Positions 4,703-62,897 of a DNA stretch of 64,000 nucleotides are shown here, one piece after another. The stretch comes from a phage. The notes under the pieces were generated by a model. That model made no database searches. It saw only the letters and a program-made list of their open reading frames with translations, and was not told the origin of the DNA. The stretch is taken from the sequence record PZ445450.1. The stretch is one strand, 5' to 3'. Within the stretch, counting starts at the first letter, position 1, and each line of letters starts with the position of its first letter. Position numbers and translations under genes: made by a program.

Positions 4703-4948
4703 ATGACTGAAGTAGTTGCTCGCGCAGGACAGAAAGTACGTTGTGTTGAAGTAGGTTTTGGTGGCAAAGGGTGTCAAAACTTGACTCAAGGTAAGGAATA
4801 CGCTGTTATTTCTGGTGGTGGCGACGAAAGTATTGTGTTCGAGGGCCACATCCTGGATGCTGAAAACTTTGAAATCTTTGACGACGATGGGGATCCGATC
4901 ACCTGCCTGCTGGACGGGAATTGGGGAACTTTCGAAGTGATTGGCTAA
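4703..4948 (+). CDS. hypothetical protein
   Basis: caggagacc RBS; Gly-rich acidic 81-aa ORF. Confidence 0.5.
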   Translation: MTEVVARAGQKVRCVEVGFGGKGCQNLTQGKEYAVISGGGDESIVFEGHILDAENFEIFDDDGDPITCLLDGNWGTFEVIG

Positions 4949-5031
4949 CAAATACCTATTGTAATTTACAGAAGGAGATGCTAAAATAGTGTCTCCTTCT
5001 ATGTTGTTCAAATAAAATCGGAGATTCCATA

Positions 5032-5397
5032 ATGGAACAAATGAACGATCAAGCGTCGGTTGCGATGAACGAGCAAGAACAACCTCAAGAATTTTTCTTA
5101 GGGTTAAGTAAAGATCAAGTGTCTCTTTTGCTAGTGCTTTCTTCTTTCATGGGAAGACTTCAGGAGCTCACACAACAACCGGAGGCTGAACAATTATTTC
5201 AGGCTCTGCGTGAAGAAGAAAAATATCGTCGTTTGGACTATGCCTTAGGTTGGGTAGCTCAACAACGAGATATGCTGATGGCCCTCTCTGGGACCACAAG
5301 TTTTGCAATGGGCCTGTTGGCTCAAGTTCAGGACAAATTAATTCAAGCAGGGTTTGCACACACGGCAAACACTAACGAAGAACAAGGAGACAAATAA
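5032..5397 (+). CDS. hypothetical Gln/Glu-rich protein
   Basis: RBS ggaga; 121-aa ORF. Confidence 0.5.
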   Translation: MEQMNDQASVAMNEQEQPQEFFLGLSKDQVSLLLVLSSFMGRLQELTQQPEAEQLFQALREEEKYRRLDYALGWVAQQRDMLMALSGTTSFAMGLLAQVQDKLIQAGFAHTANTNEEQGDK

Positions 5398-6626
5398 TGA
5401 GCGTTATTCAACAATTCGCTAACCCGATGAATCCGCGTGAAACTGTTTTACTGGCTCACGGCATGATTAAACGCGTCAGCATCAAGCCTATCAAAGGTGC
5501 TGATCCTACAACAGGTATTAAAACCACTGTGTGGCAAGGTAAGAAAATTGAGTCCAGCCACACCATCTCTTTACTGATTTCTGAACTGGATTCCTCTGAT
5601 AACCTGCTTCAAGGTGGTGAAGAAGTCTGGATCAGCATGGGTGATAAACTGCTTAAACCGGGTCATCAAGACTCTGTCTCTGTTAAGATTGATGACAAGT
5701 GGGAAACCGTAACGCCAGGATGGATCGTAAATATCCCTTTGAAGGCAAACGAGCATAACGGTAAGACCTACTACAAAGGCTCACTGGCTAAGATGGTTAA
5801 GCTGGGCGCAGGAGAGGCTCCAGCAGCGACTCAGCAGCAAAAACAGCAACAAGGTGCACAATCACAAGGCCAGAAGCAGAAACCTCAGCAGAATGCCAAT
5901 CAGGACGTTTTACGCATCTATGGTGATGTGACTCAGATTGTTGGCAACGTGGTTACTGTAAATGACCACAAGATTGGCGAAGGTGCTATGGTTGTAACTG
6001 ATGAGCAGCTTAAAGACCTGGTGGTAGGCGGTCGTGTTGCAGCCATTGTGGACAAAGACACCGGAAACATTATCAGTGGTTTCAAAGCCTACCCACCTAA
6101 GGCAGAGAACGGCACTCAAGGCCCTGGTGGCAAGCGTAAATCCTCTTACGACCCTATTGGTGTGGAGACGGGGCATAGCATCAATGCGTTGCAGATCATC
6201 CTGGATCGTGGGTTTAAGGTAGACGACCCACTAGGCGTGGCTAAAACACTGCACGTAGTCACCATCGAGCTTAAGAAAGAGTATGCTCAAGCCACCAACC
6301 GAACTGAAGATGAAGTAGGTGCCAGTGTCGGTAATGCGGTGTTGAACGCTTGTCGCCGTATTGACAAGAAAACGAAAGTTGATGATTTTGCAGCGGCAAT
6401 TACTGCAGAAGCAAAAGATGTTTTGACTAATCTGGCTGAGCCGTTGTACGATTGGATCAAGAACGGTGCTGAGTCCACTGACCATCAAGAACCTCAAGCT
6501 GCCAAACAGGAAGAAGCCGCTCCACAGCAAAACACTGTAGACGCCCCTCCTGTAAATGATGAGGAAGATGACCCGATGGATCAGAATCCAGCACAGTACG
6601 CCTTTGATGATGACATCCCTTTTTAA
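5397..6626 (+). CDS. ssDNA-binding-like protein with bacterial SSB-type C-terminal acidic tip
   Basis: Ends AFDDDIPF, as E. coli SSB ends DFDDDIPF; Gln-rich linker QQQKQQQGAQSQGQKQKPQQ; RBS aaggagac; start overlaps upstream stop. Confidence 0.6.
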   Translation: MSVIQQFANPMNPRETVLLAHGMIKRVSIKPIKGADPTTGIKTTVWQGKKIESSHTISLLISELDSSDNLLQGGEEVWISMGDKLLKPGHQDSVSVKIDDKWETVTPGWIVNIPLKANEHNGKTYYKGSLAKMVKLGAGEAPAATQQQKQQQGAQSQGQKQKPQQNANQDVLRIYGDVTQIVGNVVTVNDHKIGEGAMVVTDEQLKDLVVGGRVAAIVDKDTGNIISGFKAYPPKAENGTQGPGGKRKSSYDPIGVETGHSINALQIILDRGFKVDDPLGVAKTLHVVTIELKKEYAQATNRTEDEVGASVGNAVLNACRRIDKKTKVDDFAAAITAEAKDVLTNLAEPLYDWIKNGAESTDHQEPQAAKQEEAAPQQNTVDAPPVNDEEDDPMDQNPAQYAFDDDIPF

Positions 6627-6642
6627 CATCTAGTCAACATGG

Positions 6643-6669
6643 CCCTGCCCGAAAGGGTGGGGCATTTTT
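6643..6669 (+). terminator. rho-independent terminator
   Basis: ccctgccc-GAAA-gggtgggg hairpin followed by cattttt. Confidence 0.55.
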
Positions 6670-6688: not shown

Positions 6689-7105
6689 ATGACATTAGAA
6701 GATATCATTGTTAAGCCTGAGAACTATGACCAATACAACCTGTCAACTCAATCTGTAGACCTTGGATGCGCCACGGTCAGTGCGTGGCTGGTTAACGGAA
6801 AAGAGTTGGATAAATGCTTGGAAGCCCACATGTCTGTTAACAAGTTCCTGGATGAAAACACTCACTGGCTTGAGGGTGCAGGCGTATATGCTTCATGGTT
6901 GGAGAGTATGGGATTCGACTACCAATCTGAAGAGGGGTGGTGGAGCTATTTAGCTATCTGCCCAGAGACGCTACAATGCTTCATGAAATATTCTGAAGAT
7001 TTGGAGTACCGTGCGGTGGTTGATAGTGCTATTGCCCGTTATAGCCGTAAACCTTTTTCCCACGACATTAAAACTGTGGAAGAATTTGTTGAAGTTTTCT
7101 GTTGA
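6689..7105 (+). CDS. hypothetical protein
   Basis: aaggaga RBS; 138-aa ORF. Confidence 0.5.
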   Translation: MTLEDIIVKPENYDQYNLSTQSVDLGCATVSAWLVNGKELDKCLEAHMSVNKFLDENTHWLEGAGVYASWLESMGFDYQSEEGWWSYLAICPETLQCFMKYSEDLEYRAVVDSAIARYSRKPFSHDIKTVEEFVEVFC

Positions 7106-7130
7106 CACGGATTGAAAGGTGTGCAATTAT
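7102..7130 (+). promoter_or_regulatory. sigma70-like promoter
   Basis: -35 TTGACA 7102-7107, about 17-nt spacer, A/T-rich -10. Confidence 0.4.
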
Positions 7131-7201: not shown

Positions 7202-7399
7202 ATGATTTATCGAATCCGTGTAAGAGAAGATGCACCAGGCTGTTACTTTGACTGGCGTGGGTGGTGGTTTCTCCACCCGATGGATGGACTCACAGATAGA
7301 ATGCTGGATGCTGCCCTTTATACAGATACCGATATAGAATATAATCTCTATCTGAAGGACGGTATAGATAACGGTCTATTTGAAGCAATTCCTGTGTAA
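7202..7399 (+). CDS. hypothetical protein
   Basis: aggagg RBS; 65-aa ORF. Confidence 0.45.
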   Translation: MIYRIRVREDAPGCYFDWRGWWFLHPMDGLTDRMLDAALYTDTDIEYNLYLKDGIDNGLFEAIPV

Positions 7400-7467: not shown

Positions 7468-7893
7468 ATGATCTATGAAATGCCAAAACTGATTCGTGAC
7501 GATGCCCAAAACGCTCACACCATTATTATGGGCAAACGCATGGATATTATTTGTCATAAAGATTTCTGGGAAGGAAGTTACTTCACAGAGTATTTTGGTA
7601 AACTGGACAATGGTCTGCTGATCCAGTTCTACACCGATGCGGAAAACAACATTCACTGGGAGTTCGAAACTGAAGATATCCATAAACTTTTCACCTTCCT
7701 CGGTATTAAGGTTGAGGCCAAGTTTGAAGAAGGTGAGTGCGACGATTGTGGATTCTATGAGGTAACAGATTTCTACCTTCCAAGTGGTAAAAATCTCTAC
7801 TACGAAAGCCACTTCGGCAACTCAAATATGCCACAGGGTTGGGATGAGTTTTTGGAAATTGCAGAAGAGGAGCTGGAATACCGTGATTATTGA
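7468..7893 (+). CDS. hypothetical acidic protein
   Basis: ggaga RBS; 141-aa ORF. Confidence 0.5.
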   Translation: MIYEMPKLIRDDAQNAHTIIMGKRMDIICHKDFWEGSYFTEYFGKLDNGLLIQFYTDAENNIHWEFETEDIHKLFTFLGIKVEAKFEEGECDDCGFYEVTDFYLPSGKNLYYESHFGNSNMPQGWDEFLEIAEEELEYRDY

Positions 7894-8341
7894 TACTGTA
7901 AAGGGAGATCTAATCTCCATTTTCAAGAAAGGGTCAGGCCACATGATCCACGGTTGTAACTGCTTTCACACAATGGGTGCAGGTATAGCGAAAGATATTG
8001 CCCGTGAGTTCCCTCAAGCACTGGCAGCCGACAAAGAGACTGCTTATGGTAATCTAGACAAGCTGGGTATGTTTTCTTGTTGGGAGCATTTTGCCAAGGC
8101 CAGGGTCGTATATGGAATCAACCTGTATACCCAGTTCTACCCAGGGCCCAATGCTGAATACTTCTCAATCATGAAAGGTTTTGAGCGAGTCAACGAGGTA
8201 TTCAAAGGTATGTCATTGCCGTTCTACATTCCTAAAATCGGATGCGGTATTGGAGGTCTAAAGTGGGAACATGTAGAAGATGTAATTAATCTTGCAACCA
8301 CAGATATTGATGTGGTTGTAGTAGAGTACAAAAAGTGTTGA
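7883..8341 (+). CDS. macro domain protein, TARG1/OARD1-like (ADP-ribose hydrolase/deacylase family)
   Basis: VKGDLISIF...HGCNCFHTMGAGIA...PKIGCGIGGLKWEHV resembles the TARG1/OARD1 signature. GTG at 7883 chosen as start; the longer track ORF from 7784 lies inside the upstream gene. Confidence 0.7.
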   Translation: MIIDTVKGDLISIFKKGSGHMIHGCNCFHTMGAGIAKDIAREFPQALAADKETAYGNLDKLGMFSCWEHFAKARVVYGINLYTQFYPGPNAEYFSIMKGFERVNEVFKGMSLPFYIPKIGCGIGGLKWEHVEDVINLATTDIDVVVVEYKKC

Positions 8342-8366
8342 CGACCATCTTCTGAGGTGATATAGT
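8338..8366 (+). promoter_or_regulatory. sigma70-like promoter (TTGACG-N17-TATAGT)
   Basis: -35 8338-8343, -10 8361-8366. Confidence 0.45.
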
Positions 8367-8395: not shown

Positions 8396-8566
8396 GTGGA
8401 GACTAAAATCTTAATTCTTGCTGTGGTAGATACAACCGAAGGAGCTATATTCGAATCTGCAGGAGGGTATTTCTACCTACCATACGGAAAAAGAACTTCC
8501 GAGCCAAGTAAAGATTCAATCCTCAAAGTGTTCCCGTGTGCTTTCTGGCTGGAGATTTTGGTATAA
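8396..8566 (+). CDS. small hypothetical protein (56 aa, GTG start)
   Basis: agagaggagag RBS 6 nt upstream of GTG; below the ORF-track size cut-off. Confidence 0.35.
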   Translation: METKILILAVVDTTEGAIFESAGGYFYLPYGKRTSEPSKDSILKVFPCAFWLEILV

Positions 8567-21780: not shown

Positions 21781-21806
21781 GGGGCTTAAAGGCCCCTTTC
21801 TTTTTG
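21781..21806 (+). terminator. rho-independent terminator
   Basis: ggggc-ttaaag-gcccc followed by tttctttttg. Confidence 0.7.
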
Positions 21807-22421
21807 TCTGCTCTTCTCCTACCATAAACGGCCCTACCTGGCAAGTGGAATAATTGACTAGCCATCAATCCCACATACTGTACAAATATACATGGAAAAT
21901 AACTATTGCATAATCTTTCATTGTGCGGTAGCAGGGCCATTTTTACCCGTTTTCTCTCCCAAAAGTGCACGTAATGCCGCTATTGCACAAATTTTAACCT
22001 GATGCACATATCCAATATCTTGTCAACAACTAAAAATCTTTATAAGTCATACACTTATACAGCATCGAAAGCGTGTTCTACGTGAAAAATCGAGTATAAC
22101 TATAGCCGCCAGATCTCAGAATTCACGTACGCACGCCATTCTATAGCCTGCAAAGTATTTATTCCAACCACAGAATAACGGAATAGTCAATACCTGCATA
22201 AAATAATTATTCGTGTAAACTGCATAACATAAATCAGCTCAGGTGTCAACATTTTTCGTAAACAGTCCGAAATTATCACGATGAGTTATCATAAACAGAG
22301 AAATCTTTAGTCGTCTAATGTTTACTGTACATTACTATACTGACTGGAATCATTAGATGACTAAGAAAAAGATAAGAAATAATTAATAATGTAATTGTTT
22401 TATCTGTAACAATAAGGCAAC

Positions 22422-22700
22422 CATGCAAACGAATGTCATGGCGCGACGGAGTCGCGACATAATATAAAAGCAGTAACCATCACCCCCGTGATAGTTTGTC
22501 TGCAATCTATTATTCAGATCATAGTTGCCTTGTATTTAGTTAATCATGACATAACAAGCAAGGCAACTATAGCTCTGATAATAGTTGCCCTGCTTTTATA
22601 TTATGTCATAGATTGTTAGCTTGTTAACTGTCAGCCTGTTGGCTGTTAGCTTGTCAATTATTAAATTGCTAATCTTTATCATGCAAACGAATGTCATGGC
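22422..22700. repeat. Composite repeat locus: 21-bp direct repeats flanking nested inverted repeats
   Basis: catgcaaacgaatgtcatggc at 22422-22442 and 22680-22700; 18-bp inverted repeat gacataatataaaagcag (22456-22473) / ctgcttttatattatgtc (22580-22597); inner palindromes cgcgac/gtcgcg and atagttgccttg/caaggcaactat. Confidence 0.8.
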
Positions 22701-22711
22701 TTATCATCTCT

Positions 22712-22767
22712 GTGTAAACAGTTTGGGCGTAAACTATTCAGGCGTAAACAGTCTATGCGTAAACAGT
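22712..22767. repeat. Four tandem iterons with 15-bp period (G[CT]GTAAAC[AT][AG]T)
   Basis: gtgtaaacagt, gcgtaaactat, gcgtaaacagt, gcgtaaacagt at 15-bp spacing; tgttagcttgt/tgtcagcctgt repeats sit just upstream and tgtgtc repeats downstream. Confidence 0.8.
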
Positions 22768-23141
22768 GAGATATGGAATAGTAACAGCCGTTATTGTGTC
22801 ATATTGTGTGACATTGTGTCCGGTGTCTGGTGTCCAGTGTGTCAGACAAGTTTTTCTCCTCTTTGTCAAGTGCTGCATGAAAAATTTACAAACTGGTATG
22901 GTAGCATTTTTGCGGCCCTGTTTACATTCAGTTGTGTATGTATAACCCTTGTTGTGTGGGCGTTTAGACGTCTAGACGGTTGGAAGTCTGCAGGTCAATA
23001 TCTAATCTATCGGCTGCTAACTATATCCCACACAAATAGTAAGAAATATAATTGTTATGTGCGTAAACAGTAACTCATGTTATCAATCCCTGTATGTATC
23101 GCCAGTGGTGCGCATAATGGGTATTATGTTAAATTGCCCGT

Positions 23142-23178
23142 AATGATAATGGTTCTCACAATGATAGGTATTCTCATT
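23142..23178. promoter_or_regulatory. Fur-box-like palindromic motifs
   Basis: aatgataatggttctcacaatgataggtattctcatt; same motif family as 10773 and 10903. Confidence 0.35.
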
Positions 23179-23420
23179 CATCCACACAAAATAGGTTGCA
23201 AATGTTGTGCCACTGTGTGAACGGCCTGGCCTATTAATTTCCCTCACTGCCTCGATATTTGAGAATTGTTATAAGAATGAGAAGTATTCCCATTTCGTCC
23301 GCCTGGCAGCACTCCTGTAGTCCTACAAGGACTCTAGCTGAAAGCTAGACCCTTCGGGCCTCCCTGCAGGTCAGGTCAAAATCGTGGTAGAATTGGGCTT
23401 ATTCAGATATTTCTGGCCGA

Positions 23421-23961
23421 CTCTTCAGGTCTGTGTGGGAAAAGCCAACCTCTCCGGCGGGGCAGGGGGAGGTCAATTAAAAAATTTACGTGGTGTATGA
23501 AGCGCTCTTCAGGTAAGGCAGGTATTATGGGATGAAACCCTCTTCAGGCAATGATATTTGTGGGTGTGATATTTGCTGGAAAGCCAGATATGACGGGACT
23601 CCCGGCGGGGATGGGGCAGTACAGACAGGGAAAATATGGGGATGTAGTTGGGTAAATTGATCAGACAGGTAGAGTATGGAATATGTTACAAGTATGTTAA
23701 ATATGGAGGGTGAATATCTGTAGGATTTGTGTGTAAAATCAAAGACTTAAGCGGTGTTGTGGTATTTTCTATAAATAATTCAAGTTTAATAGGTAATATT
23801 TGTCTCTATCCACTCTGTGTGGTAAACAGATTCAGATGATATTGGTTTGCAAGTGTATACATAATATACAAATTAAAGATACAAGAAACCCCCCTCCCCC
23901 TTCGGCTACCATTCACCTTTTCCTCTGACTGGTACTTAAACACTTATTCAGACTCTTCAGG
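23421..23961. repeat. Dispersed direct repeats of CTCTTCAGG with degenerate ~110-bp units
   Basis: CTCTTCAGG at 23421, 23505, 23540 and 23953; ctccggcggggcaggggg and ctcccggcggggatgggg recur; no supported ORF. Confidence 0.7.
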
Positions 23962-24311
23962 TTATCACCCATATATCATATGGCAGTGACTGGTGTCCTC
24001 CGGCCCCTCTTTCGTCACCCGTCCGCTTCGCCATGCTAATGCCATAGCCAAATGTTCGGTTGTTCACCCTGTTCACTCAGGTGTATCTCCATACCCCTTC
24101 AAACCGAAGAGAACAGAAAACCCGAATTACTCGGTAAAAGAAAAGAGAAGAACTTAATTTTATCATGATAGGCAAGAATGTCAAGGCATGACTGCTCACT
24201 AAACAAGCAAACAGTCATGTGTGGAAGGTAAGTGATTGTGGTGGTAGGAAATTTAGTTGAAAGATGTGTTATAGGTGCTCCCAGCACTTTAGCCGGGTAG
24301 CTAATTGTGTG

Positions 24312-56022: not shown

Positions 56023-56784
56023 TTAAAGTTCCATAAAGTTTTCTACAGTTTCAATAAATGCTTTATCAGAGAAAGCGTCAACAGCACCGTTAAACCATAC
56101 AGGGATCCCGCGATCCTCATATTGATAAAGGTCGCTACGTGAAATGCCACTTCCATCTGCACTCTGCGAATCATACTTGTTTACAATCAGCAGTTTTGTG
56201 CCTTTACAAGTAGCAGGAAACAATTCCCAGTTAAAATTAATAACTGTGTTAGAACAACCTACCAGGATCACCATATCATTGCTTGTGAGAGATGTCAACA
56301 GGTCATACATGTCTGTATACTTAGGAGCAACCTCACCGAAGAACACTACATTGGGCTTAACCCAGGTATACTTGCCTGTATCTACCTCCGTGTATCCGAT
56401 ATTTTTAATTACATCATTACCTTCAGCATCTTCGTAGGTGATTTCAGGCAAATACCCGTGGACATGTAAAATATCTTCATGTTTTACACCAGCACGCTCC
56501 AGCAAATCATCTACATTGGTAGTAAGGTTGATCACACGACCAGACCAGCGGGAATACCACTCAGCGATCCGAAGATGTGCAAGGTTAGGATCAACACTGC
56601 CCAGAGCTACACGACGTGCATTGTAAAAGTCATGCACCTTATAGTAGTTCTTGGCAAAGGTGTGGATGTTGCACACCTCATCGATGCTGAAATTCTCCCA
56701 CATTGCAGTGCTACCAGATCGGAAAGTGGGAATACCAGATTCAGCGCTCAAACCAGCACCGGAGATAATAATCAGTCGTCGCAT
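56023..56784 (-). CDS. Sir2 (sirtuin) family NAD-dependent protein
   Basis: GAGLSAESGIPTFRSG, TTNVDDLLERAG, HVHGYL, PNVVFFGE sirtuin motifs; no obvious CxxC zinc ribbon. Confidence 0.8.
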   Translation of the reverse strand: MRRLIIISGAGLSAESGIPTFRSGSTAMWENFSIDEVCNIHTFAKNYYKVHDFYNARRVALGSVDPNLAHLRIAEWYSRWSGRVINLTTNVDDLLERAGVKHEDILHVHGYLPEITYEDAEGNDVIKNIGYTEVDTGKYTWVKPNVVFFGEVAPKYTDMYDLLTSLTSNDMVILVGCSNTVINFNWELFPATCKGTKLLIVNKYDSQSADGSGISRSDLYQYEDRGIPVWFNGAVDAFSDKAFIETVENFMEL

Positions 56785-56792
56785 AAGTGTCC

Positions 56793-57143
56793 TCAGTAGA
56801 TGTTTTGTTTAATCTCTATTCCAAACTTCTTGAATGAGTCAGCAGCAAGCATAAATTTACGAGCTGCCGATGGATTAGAAGTATGCACGAAAATAATCAC
56901 GTTGTCAATAAGTGGTGGCTTTCCGAATACAAGTTTCTCCTCTAGCGCAGAGAAGCAGTCGTACCCTTCAAGCACTTCACCTAGATCATTGTCAAAATGC
57001 CACTCAGAAACGCTCCTGTAGAGCTTTCTATTATCGTTAATAAAATCCATGAACTCAGAAGAGTTCTTCAGCCAAAGAGCATCTTGGATTCCGTAATTTG
57101 ACGGATCTCTCAAGTCATCTAGCCACACAATCAACTTCTTCAT
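56793..57143 (-). CDS. hypothetical protein
   Basis: Internal ATG (MKKLIVWLDD) forms ATGA overlap with the RNA ligase stop. Confidence 0.45.
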   Translation of the reverse strand: MKKLIVWLDDLRDPSNYGIQDALWLKNSSEFMDFINDNRKLYRSVSEWHFDNDLGEVLEGYDCFSALEEKLVFGKPPLIDNVIIFVHTSNPSAARKFMLAADSFKKFGIEIKQNIY

Positions 57144-58075
57144 TGCATATAGTCCTCGTTGTGAAAATAGCAATCAAGTATCTCACGGCGTTCCTGCTCC
57201 AGGAGGCAGTTCCACACATCTTCTGTGTAATTGCTACGAATGAAGTTTACCATGCCATAAAACTCTTCGTCAATACGTTTAAAGATATCATCATCCCAAA
57301 TCTTCCAAGCTTTACCCCTCATTACGGCCTTCCGTGCCAAATAGTATGGAGACTTGATCTTCAGCTGCAGGTCATAAGGGTAGTAAGGCTTACGGATCAT
57401 ATACCCTTCGCCCCTTGTTTCTGCAGCTAATTCTTTTGCATAGCTGAACGGGATTTCACGCACAGTGTGAGGACGTTTTGCACCAAGGTATTTGGCAATT
57501 CCATCTAAAGCTGCTTCTGGTAGCATTATTCCAGAATCATTATATCTGCAACCTATCAAATATGCGCCATGGTCTTCTTGAACAATATGCGGATCTGAAG
57601 GGTGACAAATTTCAAACATGAATGTCATGTTTTCATTGCCCATAACCTTCTTGATAAGATCTAAATTACCACATTGCTCTTGGATGGTTTCCTTTGCAAG
57701 GTTACAATATGGAGAATCAAGAGACCCGGTTGTTGAGAACAATAGGTCACCTTTATGAGATGATACCACACCAAGGAATCCGTTCTTTTTCTCTACCGCA
57801 GTCACAAGCTTATTGTCAGGCAGGTTGGTGGAGTTTTCTCCCAAGTTAAACACTTTTGTGAAGGGCCATGCCACAACATTTCCTTCATTACCTACAACAA
57901 TGCCTCGGCACTCCAGTAAACGAGGGGACAAATGCCATAAATTGTTGTAAAATACTTTTCTAGCATATTTATAGATCTTTAACCCGAGATCTGGGTAATA
58001 CCTACTGGTTACAAGACCTTTGTCAACTAGGTCGTCTGCATTAAAATACTTCATCATACGTTCCTCATTTGTCAT
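57140..58075 (-). CDS. RNA ligase-like nucleotidyltransferase (Rnl family, putative)
   Basis: Motif I EKKNGF, motif IV EGYMIRK, motif V LKIKSPYY; divergent from kinase/phosphoesterase genes. Confidence 0.6.
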   Translation of the reverse strand: MTNEERMMKYFNADDLVDKGLVTSRYYPDLGLKIYKYARKVFYNNLWHLSPRLLECRGIVVGNEGNVVAWPFTKVFNLGENSTNLPDNKLVTAVEKKNGFLGVVSSHKGDLLFSTTGSLDSPYCNLAKETIQEQCGNLDLIKKVMGNENMTFMFEICHPSDPHIVQEDHGAYLIGCRYNDSGIMLPEAALDGIAKYLGAKRPHTVREIPFSYAKELAAETRGEGYMIRKPYYPYDLQLKIKSPYYLARKAVMRGKAWKIWDDDIFKRIDEEFYGMVNFIRSNYTEDVWNCLLEQERREILDCYFHNEDYMQ

Positions 58076-58118
58076 TTTGTCAGTCTATCCTGTCACACAA
58101 ATAACCTAGTGTCAACAC

Positions 58119-58147
58119 TTGAAATTAACAAAACAGTTAGATATACT
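58119..58147 (+). promoter_or_regulatory. sigma70-like promoter (TTGAAA-N17-TATACT) in divergent intergenic region
   Basis: -35 58119-58124, -10 58142-58147. Confidence 0.5.
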
Positions 58148-58175
58148 ATCGTTGAAATTAAAACGGAGGGTCACT

Positions 58176-58586
58176 ATGTCTAAAATGCTATATATCGTGC
58201 GTGGTCTACCAGGGTCTGGCAAATCAACACTGGCAAATGCGCTATCTTTAGAGGGTCTGTATCCACATTTTGAGAAAGACATGTTCTGGTATGACGATGA
58301 CGGCAATTACAACTGGGATGCAAGTAAAGTAACACTCGCAGCGAAATGGTGCAAAGATAACGTAGAAGATATGATGCGTATGGGATACGACCGTATCGTG
58401 GTAAGTAATACGTTTACAAAAGAAAAACATGTGCAGGAATATGTTGACATGGCAATCAGTCATGGGTATAGTTATACCGTGATCGTGGTTGAAAACCGCC
58501 ACGGTAATAAAAGCATTCATGATGTTCCAGACAAGGTTGTGGATCGTATGGAACGCCAGCTTAAAAACTGCATTAAACTTAAATGA
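58176..58586 (+). CDS. polynucleotide kinase-like P-loop kinase
   Basis: ggaggg RBS; MLYIVRGLPGSGKSTLA Walker A at extreme N-terminus, as in Pnk kinase domains. Confidence 0.65.
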   Translation: MSKMLYIVRGLPGSGKSTLANALSLEGLYPHFEKDMFWYDDDGNYNWDASKVTLAAKWCKDNVEDMMRMGYDRIVVSNTFTKEKHVQEYVDMAISHGYSYTVIVVENRHGNKSIHDVPDKVVDRMERQLKNCIKLK

Positions 58587-58593
58587 GGAATGT

Positions 58594-59148
58594 ATGAAAT
58601 ACTTTGTAACAAGCGACACACACTTTCTCCACCAGCGGGTCATGGAGTTTGATTCATGTCAAAAACACAGATCTCAGTATGATCACAATCTTGACAGTAT
58701 GAATGCGGGAATCATCGCCGAATGGAACTCTGTTGTGTCACCTGCAGACACTGTGTTCCACTTGGGAGATATTGCGTGCACTAATGATAAGAATATCAAC
58801 AACTTACTTCCAGATATTCTAAATATGTTGAACGGACATATTATTCTTGTTCGTGGCAACCATGACACAAGGACGACTGTCAGAATTATGAAAGAGTTCG
58901 GTCATGAGGTTGTAGATTATTACGAGCTTCGCCACAACAAGAATTTGATCTGTATGAGCCATTACCAATTTGCAAAGTGGAACAGAAAGCCTCACGGATC
59001 AGTCCAACTGTTCGGTCATGCTCACGGAACCACACAACAGTTGTTTGGCAGGCAGCTTGATGTCGGTTGGGATGTGTGGGGGAGACTCTTACCATTAGAA
59101 GAGGCATACCGTATTGCAATGAGTTTTGCTATTGACAGCGGGGAGTAA
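58594..59148 (+). CDS. calcineurin-like metallophosphoesterase
   Basis: SDTHF, GDI, VRGNHD, GHAH motifs; gagg RBS before internal ATG. Confidence 0.7.
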   Translation: MKYFVTSDTHFLHQRVMEFDSCQKHRSQYDHNLDSMNAGIIAEWNSVVSPADTVFHLGDIACTNDKNINNLLPDILNMLNGHIILVRGNHDTRTTVRIMKEFGHEVVDYYELRHNKNLICMSHYQFAKWNRKPHGSVQLFGHAHGTTQQLFGRQLDVGWDVWGRLLPLEEAYRIAMSFAIDSGE

Positions 59149-62085: not shown

Positions 62086-62160
62086 GCCCTGTTAGCTTAG
62101 TGGATAAAGCAGCGGCCTTCTAAGCCGTTGACACTGGTTCGAGTCCAGTACGGGGTGCCA
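62086..62160 (+). tRNA. tRNA-Arg (anticodon UCU)
   Basis: Cloverleaf folded by hand: acceptor gccctgt/acggggt (one G-U), anticodon loop CUUCUAA, T-loop TTCGAGT, CCA encoded. Confidence 0.8.
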
Positions 62161-62164
62161 AATT

Positions 62165-62251
62165 GGGGAGTTATCCCGTAGAGGTAGCGGTGTAGACTGT
62201 AAATCTATTGTCATTGCGACTCGGGTGGTTCGACTCCACCACTCCCCACCA
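62165..62251 (+). tRNA. tRNA-Tyr (anticodon GUA), class II
   Basis: Acceptor ggggagt/actcccc, anticodon loop CUGUAAA, long variable arm, T-loop TTCGACT, CCA encoded. Confidence 0.75.
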
Positions 62252-62365
62252 AATTTATATTTTTAAATGCATAAATCATACAGATAATGACATTGATATT
62301 TATCGTCGTTTATACTAGTCACTAACTGCTCGAAAATCAGTGTCATTATCAGTGTAATTTATAAA

Positions 62366-62456
62366 GGAGGGTAGGGAGCAATGGTGCTCAAGCGGTCTTG
62401 AAAACCGTCCCGTTGAGGATGACTCGATGATGGTTCGATTCCATTACTCTCCGCCA
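62366..62456 (+). tRNA. tRNA-Ser (anticodon UGA), class II
   Basis: Acceptor ggagggt/actctcc, anticodon loop CUUGAAA, long variable arm, T-loop TTCGATT, CCA encoded. Confidence 0.75.
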
Positions 62457-62554
62457 CATTGTTGACCTTGTAATTAAGCGAAAGCCGGAAGCAGAACCGG
62501 ATTATCAAATGTTACAGTCGTCATCGCCGACTAGCCACATGGTCAACATATTGC

Positions 62555-62653
62555 GCTAGGTAAGCCCTTTGGCAAGGGCGAGGATTTTTAATCCTGAAAA
62601 TAGACGAGGTAGTCGTTGAATACATAGGTGGTTCGATTCCATCACCTAGCACC
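62555..62653 (+). tRNA. aberrant tRNA-like gene (candidate Lys-UUU-like anticodon loop; ~30-nt insertion before T-arm)
   Basis: Acceptor gctaggt/acctagc, D-arm gccc-tttggcaa-gggc, T-arm ggtgg-ttcgatt-ccatc. Anticodon region aggatttttaatcct gives UUUUUAA loop only with a 4-bp stem; ~30 nt lie between it and the T-arm; 3' CC only. Confidence 0.45.
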
Positions 62654-62657
62654 TTTT

Positions 62658-62733
62658 GCTGATGTAGCACAATTGGCAGTGCAATTGATTTGTAATCAAT
62701 AGGTTGCAGGTTCAAGTCCTGCCATCAGCACCA
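62658..62733 (+). tRNA. tRNA-Thr (anticodon UGU)
   Basis: Acceptor gctgatg/catcagc, D-stem gcac/gtgc, anticodon loop UUUGUAA, T-loop TTCAAGT, CCA encoded. Confidence 0.8.
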
Positions 62734-62734
62734 T

Positions 62735-62809
62735 GGCCCTGTAGCTGGAAGGTTCAAGCAAGCGACTCATAATCGCCAGACGGTGGTTCAATTCCACCCA
62801 GGGCCACCA
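62735..62809 (+). tRNA. tRNA-Met (anticodon CAU; elongator Met or Ile2 lysidine type)
   Basis: Acceptor ggccctg/cagggcc with G1-C72, anticodon loop CUCAUAA, T-loop TTCAATT, CCA encoded. Confidence 0.7.
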
Positions 62810-62820
62810 AATAATAAATA

Positions 62821-62897
62821 CTCCGCGTAGCTCAGCTTGGTAGAGCGCCTGATTTGGGATCAGGAGGTCGAGTGTTCGAATCACTCCGTGGAGACCA
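62821..62897 (+). tRNA. tRNA-Pro (anticodon UGG)
   Basis: C1-G72 acceptor typical of tRNA-Pro, anticodon loop UUUGGGA, T-loop TTCGAAT, CCA encoded. Confidence 0.8.

Follow-up and report, generated by a model that had tools for sequence, protein, structure and literature searches.

The phage gene at 7883..8341 (+ strand) of the window, the whole 64,000-nucleotide stretch of DNA analyzed here, encodes a macrodomain protein of 152 amino acids (plus stop), as supported by the ORF list, homology and fold, and the protein very probably belongs to the T4 Tk.4/AdfM family (PHROG 335). By analogy with characterized relatives, we suggest that it is probably an early-expressed orphan "antitoxin", which would remove DarT2-made ADP-ribose from the thymidines of phage DNA and so act against DarTG2. 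Anti-DarT macrodomains are a known, recently described kind of protein, and the phage gene adds a member; the two new details are an active site without the lysine and an allele exchange of gene size between Vequintaviruses. The legacy annotation of the gene ("phosphatase" or "hypothetical protein") is hereby corrected.

T4 Tk.4 is 39% identical to the macro protein end to end (E 6e-44) and has one match in the 64-kb window, at 7883-8332; T-even records likewise contain one match each, at tk.4 beside vs. The PHROG 335 match has E 6.8e-60. Full-length homology, shared invariant motifs and a single copy per genome place the protein in the Tk.4/AdfM family. Both proteins are stand-alone macrodomains (155 aa in T4, 152 aa here) with every family-invariant residue, including N-L-Y-T-Q and the two Gly loops, both genes overlap the upstream gene with their start (by 4 nt with vs in T4), and both are non-essential on K-12. 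They differ in phage group, Tevenvirinae versus Vequintavirinae here, and in 61% of residues, and the T4 upstream neighbor vs is unrelated to the upstream ORF of the phage macro gene (E 36 against T4 Vs), so a conserved vs-tk.4 gene pair was rejected.

The T4 transposon library on a DarTG2 host gave tk.4 as the single significant hit, the gene was named adfM (anti-DarT factor Macrodomain), and the clean tk.4 knock-out was DarTG2-sensitive (bioRxiv 10.1101/2025.11.20.689424, November 2025 preprint). The DarTG2 challenge in this preprint covered the T4 library, not the Bas54 library. According to its supplementary tables, T4 tk.4 is non-essential (45/46 TA sites disrupted), as is bas54_0092, identical in sequence to the gene studied here, on E. 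coli K-12 (31/31 TA sites disrupted), and depletion of bas54_0092 is absent in the clinical-isolate comparison of the table. The sequence-only reading of this DNA had proposed a counter-defence candidate, and clear homology to Tk.4/AdfM, which T4 needs against DarTG2, backs that proposal. Our literature search found no DarTG2 tests on Vequintavirinae. Two studies used T5 as their DarTG2-sensitive indicator phage, and the unique sequence of T5 gave no macro homologue (best tblastn E 3.9, best profile 11 bits) by a procedure that scores 206 bits in the window.

The macro family was detected in 2832 of 50,697 phage records (about 5.6%), mostly large myoviruses, dominated by T-even types. In Pelagimonas, a bacterial member of the family stands alone on the chromosome, with no darT neighbor. 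The PHROG 335 profile has 422 positions and other architectures therefore exist; in Felixounavirus wV8, gene 12 (1495-2280 of the sequence compared) encodes a macrodomain fused to a C-terminal extension of ~105 aa (total 261 aa), an architecture of FelixO1-like phages.

The macro ORF runs from GTG 7883 to the stop TGA at 8339-8341. The upstream ORF (7468..7893, + strand, 141 aa, PHROG 8157, no Pfam match) ends with TGA at 7891-7893, so that the two ORFs overlap by 11 nt (GTGATTATTGA, 7883..7893, + strand); the overlapping GTG start, noted already in the sequence-only reading, is real and conserved in relatives, and translational coupling to the upstream ORF is possible. A Shine-Dalgarno-like AGAGGAG (7866..7872, + strand), read directly from the sequence, lies 10 nt 5' of the GTG within the upstream ORF, and both elements are kept in four further Vequintaviruses. 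The longest version of the ORF begins at GTG 7784, with a further in-frame ATG at 7844. Both starts were rejected, since the homologue N-termini, M-I-(I/V), begin at the same alignment column as the 7883 start and the first residue of T4 Tk.4 aligns to nucleotide 7883; additionally, ATG 7844 reads CTG in 2 of the 4 Vequintaviruses compared. Identical start and end coordinates were chosen in the annotations of related genomes.

The macro protein is mildly acidic (pI 6.5) and 100% identical to bas59_0089 of Bas59 (BASEL phage EduardKellenberger), and its ORF is nucleotide-identical to bas54_0092 of MaxBurger/Bas54. The 3 kb around the gene match 123 phage records at 80-99% identity, nearly all of them Vequintavirus (rV5-like) phages of E. 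coli.

The macro fold is virtually certain. The sequence-only reading had placed a macro domain gene at 7883-8341 and named a profile search against macro families as a check; Pfam Macro PF01661 matched with 26.2 bits, above the gathering cut-off of 22, with residues 22-134 covering profile positions 1-117 of 118, and ALC1-like relatives were matched as well. The AlphaFold2 model (76-sequence alignment) has pLDDT 94.6 and pTM 0.90, strands and helices alternate as expected, and the predicted structure contains the three-layer alpha/beta/alpha arrangement, the mixed beta-sheet and an ADP-ribose cleft with the conserved Asn and two Gly-rich loops. Foldseek against the PDB returned Poa1p, TARG1, BT1257, DarG and SCO6735 at the top (E 1e-9 to 2e-7, TM 0.68-0.75), and the family profile matched the same five relatives (E 7.6e-16 to 1.9e-12). 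These matches assign the protein to the ALC1-like class, the one with TARG1: in sequence and structure it is nearer to TARG1, DarG, SCO6735 and Poa1p than to the MacroD-type, PARG-like, macroH2A-like or other classes, and within the class the five solved relatives are roughly equidistant, none clearly closest.

Conservation was counted in an alignment of 118 family members. G24, N26, G34, A36, D50, N80, Y82 and P117 are invariant (118/118), and Q84, T83, C27, M31, G120 and G122 are kept in 117/118. The conserved Asn and the first Gly-rich ADP-ribose-binding loop, H23-G24-C25-N26-C27-F28...M31-G32-A33-G34-I35-A36, are encoded at 7949..7990 (+ strand), and N26 is equivalent to DarG N22 and SCO6735 N27. 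The N-x-Y-T-Q motif (N80-L81-Y82-T83-Q84) is encoded at 8120..8134 (+ strand), with Q84 at the position of the catalytic Lys, and the second Gly-rich, diphosphate-binding loop, P117-K-I-G120-C-G122-I-G124-G125, at 8231..8257 (+ strand). Profile-to-PDB alignments superpose N-x-Y-T-Q on "N-M-I-G-Q" of SCO6735/BT1257 and on "L-I-T-K" of TARG1, and the alignment with PhiKZ gp104 places P-T-K on the phage Y-T-Q; Gln84 is thus the site of TARG1 Lys84, DarG Lys80 and SCO6735 Gln85. The site of TARG1 Asp125 is Gly124 in the phage protein, and across the family it is Ala or Gly, never Asp. The loop from Q84 to Y93 has 10 residues in the phage protein and 10-16 across the family.

The active site separates the phage protein from TARG1/OARD1 (PDB 4J5Q/R/S), which shares with it the ALC1-like class, the size, 24-26% identity (profile E 5e-14) and the similar motifs GDL..., H..., GxG and P-[KR]-I-G-C-G...W, and which also reverses T-ADPr on DNA. 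The catalytic dyad Lys84/Asp125 of TARG1 is replaced by Gln84/Gly124, and TARG1 is no nearer than DarG, Poa1p, BT1257 or SCO6735, so orthology was rejected; of the earlier label "TARG1/OARD1-type", the class stands, and the orthology and the catalytic pair do not. Similarly, full membership in DarG (DarTG2; PDB 5M3I, 5M31, 7OMU) was ruled out. Among NCBIfam models DarG matches best, and it is the sole PADLOC model matched, but the match is limited to the macro part and lies far under the equivalog cut-off (NF048014, 45.8 bits versus 250 bits; model positions 2-144 of 338). The catalytic Lys80 of DarG stands in P-T-K-K where the phage protein has T-Q-F, the C-terminal DarT-binding domain of the about 330-aa DarG is missing from the single-domain phage protein, and DarG adjoins a darT gene, which is absent beside the phage macro gene (neighboring ORFs of 56-141 aa, no Pfam matches).

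PhiKZ gp104 (AdfM of chimalliviruses) is alike in kind, a stand-alone phage macrodomain with the same name; in vitro it clears DNA of DarT2-made ADP-ribose, and it protects against DarTG2 (PMC13309987, Cell Rep 2026). In contrast to the protein studied here, it keeps the DarG-type lysine (P-T-K, K78), and it is imported into the phage nucleus (PMC13309987). A common lineage of the two was rejected (21-22% identity, Lys-type; hhalign probability 96.8%).

In lacking this lysine the active site resembles that of SCO6735 (Streptomyces coelicolor) and BT1257 (Bacteroides), which have Gln, held by the conserved Asn, at the catalytic-Lys position; phage Q84, N26, G120 and G122 correspond to SCO6735 Q85, N27, G126 and G128. 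SCO6735 is a fast dT-ADPr DNA hydrolase without the TARG1 Lys/Asp. It rescues DarT-exposed E. coli and acts specifically on thymidine rather than guanosine adducts; the substitutions Q85A and N27S inactivate it, and a backbone- and water-mediated mechanism has been proposed for it (PMC9411070). The identity to the phage protein is only about 23%, SCO6735 and BT1257 are bacterial housekeeping or stress genes rather than phage genes, and the surface of SCO6735 is described as electropositive, in contrast to the mildly acidic phage protein. The Gln, Asn and G-x-G features of this subclass were found in the phage protein and the long mobile loop was not: in SCO6735/BT1257 the loop is 5-6 residues longer right after the Gln and carries DNA-contacting lysines, and the phage family is without both. 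A mobile loop ~5 residues longer than that of DarG/TARG1 is said to mark the subclass (PMC9411070).

Yeast Poa1p (ADP-ribose-1''-phosphate phosphatase; PDB 6LFQ-U) is 21-22% identical, has 180 aa with insertions, and acts on a substrate from tRNA splicing, a pathway without counterpart in the phage. A Poa1p-like phosphatase clearing a by-product of RNA repair, as the labels "phosphatase" and "A1pp motif" imply, is hardly credible for the phage protein. Appr1p is a product of the Tpt1/KptA 2'-phosphotransferase pathway and does not arise in T4-type Pnk/Rnl repair; it is listed as a KptA-2H by-product, whereas the phage carries a Pnk/ligase repair set and its annotation has no KptA homologue. 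The T4 homologue shows a DarTG2 phenotype, and the name was inherited from the A1pp domain label and does not reflect a tested activity.

The anti-DarT2 function would proceed as follows. The protein would be an ADP-ribosylglycohydrolase consisting of one free-standing macrodomain, a member of the T4 Tk.4/AdfM family that resembles an orphan antitoxin. It would be made early, probably by transcription from host-type promoters and by translation from the GTG that overlaps the upstream ORF. In a DarTG2 host, infection would free DarT2, which would ADP-ribosylate thymidines in single-stranded phage DNA and block replication. The macrodomain would hold the ADP-ribose via Asn26 and the two Gly-rich loops and hydrolyze the ribose-thymine bond, making the DNA replicable again. 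Because the DarG/TARG1 Lys is replaced by a conserved Gln, lysine-independent, water-mediated catalysis as proposed for SCO6735 is most likely, and Gln84 would position the distal ribose. We infer both T-ADPr DNA hydrolysis and DarTG2 protection by analogy with the biochemistry of SCO6735, DarG and PhiKZ AdfM and with the T4 genetics. The sequence-only reading credited the TARG1/OARD1 family with removing ADP-ribose from proteins and nucleic acids; for the phage protein the likeliest substrate would be DarT2-made ADP-ribosyl-thymidine in DNA, rather than protein. The T4 evidence is genetic and from a preprint, and the identity to AdfM is just 39%. Against the anti-DarT2 function stand also the shorter loop without DNA-contacting lysines, the pI of 6.5, the promiscuity of the class (T-ADPr DNA, U-ADPr RNA, Glu/Asp-ADPr protein, OAADPr, Appr1p), and the SIR2 enzyme of the phage, which could supply another substrate.

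This promiscuity towards U-ADPr RNA and Glu/Asp-ADPr protein keeps a broader or different counter-defence role as a rival: the protein would mainly erase ADP-ribose that further ADP-ribosyltransferase toxins or defences of the host had placed on RNA (e.g., uracil-linked) or on Glu/Asp of proteins, with DarT2 as only one target, or as none in this phage. U-ADPr on RNA is also reversed by TARG1, DarG and the Gln-type SCO6735 (PMC13036486), and SCO6735 and TARG1 hydrolyze Glu/Asp-linked protein ADP-ribosylation. The wide spread of the family over phages of many hosts (2832 of 50,697 records), the stand-alone bacterial homologue without a DarT neighbor, and the short mobile loop and mild acidity of the phage protein fit such a role. 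However, the sole phenotype found for the T4 homologue was on DarTG2, SCO6735 in competition favors the DNA over the protein substrate, and adenine RNA ADP-ribosylation of the CmdT type is described as irreversible, and we regard the broader role as unlikely.

The same phage encodes a bona fide SIR2-family protein (56023-56784, - strand; Pfam E 6.9e-28), and the annotation of the near-identical Bas54 genome lists no ADP-ribosyltransferase, which leaves SIR2 as the only annotated NAD-consuming enzyme; a phage-encoded ADP-ribosyltransferase partner was rejected on this annotation. The macro protein could be thought to work with the sirtuin, deacetylating its O-acetyl-ADP-ribose product or reversing its ADP-ribosylation, like the SirTM-macro pairs, and TARG1/OARD1 is itself an OAADPr deacetylase. 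Nevertheless, 48 kb separate the two genes, which are on opposite strands; SirTM partners are MacroD-type and not ALC1-like, and SIR2 was counted in 1022 phage records, most of them V5-like or T5-like, versus 2832 for the T-even-dominated macro family. T5 has SIR2 (57% identity) without macro, and T4 has macro but, to our knowledge, no sirtuin. An obligatory macro-SIR2 pairing is not supported, given the differing distributions and T5, and the partnership as such appears very unlikely.

Nucleotide identity between the macro ORF and its counterparts in inoa and O157 typing phage 14 is only 79%, and the flanking genes are 93-100% identical (415/415 for the upstream ORF of inoa), with divergence break points near 7910 and 8330. 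This gene-sized island of divergence implies that two diverged alleles have been exchanged by recombination among Vequintaviruses, which is typical of accessory genes in host conflict. The amino-acid differences between the two alleles cluster at residues 54-75 and the catalytic motifs are unaltered; the ratio of synonymous to non-synonymous codon differences is 46:26 versus typing phage 14 and 38:29 versus inoa.

Allele differences away from the catalytic motifs are expected of a partner-binding surface and would suit a protein that degrades or sponges ADP-ribose-derived immune signals (e.g., of the Thoeris gcADPR type) or mainly binds DarT as a non-catalytic inhibitor. Many phage Macro domains were proposed to act on soluble ADPr derivatives in a comparative-genomics survey (PMC9503650), and SCO6735 Q85A, though without catalytic activity, still interacts with DarT and thereby inhibits it. 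Near-strict conservation of the catalytic-site residues N26, Q84, G120 and G122 favors catalysis instead, a Thoeris-related phenotype is not reported for T4 tk.4, and we consider the sponge or inhibitor function highly improbable.

A more far-reaching proposal, which we offer tentatively and hold to be doubtful, is that the T4 Tk.4 and rV5 macrodomains form a distinct lysine-free (N-x-Y-T-Q) branch of TARG1/DarG with chemistry unlike that of DarG, with family-specific invariants (D50, C27, M31, Y82), and with alleles that can be exchanged, each adapted to its own DarT2 variant or to a further ADP-ribosylation of nucleic acid or protein, possibly through direct toxin binding in addition to erasure of the toxin's product. 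If true, the family would be a broad-spectrum eraser, not a simple copy of DarG. A widespread T4-type phage macrodomain without the DarG/TARG1 lysine and with the SCO6735 glutamine is relevant to work on the "AdfM" mechanism or its inhibitors. DarTG is common among the toxin-antitoxin systems that defend against phages, and V5-like phages, with their broad host range, are candidates for therapy; a probable anti-DarT2 enzyme in these phages would aid host-range prediction and explain resistance to one defence class.

The macro gene lies downstream of the DNA polymerase gene, inside a long same-strand array of small ORFs without assigned function, and is probably co-transcribed with the upstream ORF 7468-7893. 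A terminator-like GC-rich hairpin followed by a T run (6642..6663, + strand) probably ends the preceding transcription unit. Two promoter-like sites detected by consensus match follow on the + strand: a sigma-70 type TTGACA-17-AATTAT with extended TG (7102..7130), the candidate promoter for the 7202/7468/7883 run, and TTTATA-17-TATAAT (7317..7345) 5' of ORF 7468. The hairpin and these two sites suggest, from the sequence, a single unit of the ORFs at 7202 and 7468 and the macro gene. Another promoter-like site, TTGACG-17-TATAGT with TG (8338..8366, + strand), overlaps the macro stop and is the candidate promoter of the next small gene (8396-8566). Sigma-70 promoter-like sites are enriched between 2 and 12 kb (30 observed versus 18.7 +/- 4.2 expected), and 10/13 of the + strand sites matching at least 11 of 12 consensus positions lie between 2.4 and 21.3 kb. 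This clustering is consistent with an early region transcribed by the host polymerase; for the "early region" named in the sequence-only reading, near-consensus sigma-70 promoters are plentiful in the small-ORF array, as expected, and the timing itself is inferred.

Several other features of the phage were observed. In Bas54, a putative homing endonuclease gene, bas54_0088, lies at the end of the essential 424-aa bas54_0087 (4760-6626 of the sequence compared); window 5397-6626 is a single 409-aa ORF, and the bas54_0088-type endonuclease therefore appears to be absent. A gap of ~2.4 kb (21800-24300) between divergent + and - arrays of small ORFs contains iteron-like 15-nt tandem repeats (GCGTAAAC-N7, 22714-22764), and CGTAAACAGT recurs at 22257 and 22758. 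The gap also contains a 21-nt direct repeat whose copies (22422 and 22680) are exact and an 18-nt inverted repeat whose arms match perfectly (22456-22473 / 22590-22607). No transposon insertions are tolerated in the corresponding region of Bas54 (HIDEN-SEQ preprint), and we regard the gap as a candidate for a replication origin or a regulatory locus.

The SIR2 protein is shared with T5-like phages (about 57% identity). T5.105 (T5, 7588-8094 of the sequence compared), annotated "Sir2 (NAD-dependent deacetylase)" in RefSeq, was considered as a hidden macro and rejected, as it matched neither the macro protein nor the family profile; the "Sir2" label looks doubtful because the translation starts with D-x-D-G-V-L-N, reminiscent of HAD-type phosphatases. 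Adjoining the SIR2 gene, near the tRNA cluster, window 57140-59148 holds an RNA-repair-like gene set: an Rnl1-type RNA ligase (57140-58075, - strand), a PNK-like P-loop kinase (58119-58586, + strand) and a calcineurin-like phosphoesterase (58489-59148, + strand). The tRNA cluster has seven genes (62086-62897). One of them, of 97-99 nt (62555-62653, + strand), was typed by ARAGORN as undetermined with a 4-base anticodon "atcc", scores 35.5 bits with Rfam and is labelled tRNA-Lys in the Bas54 record; it may be intron-containing or otherwise unusual.
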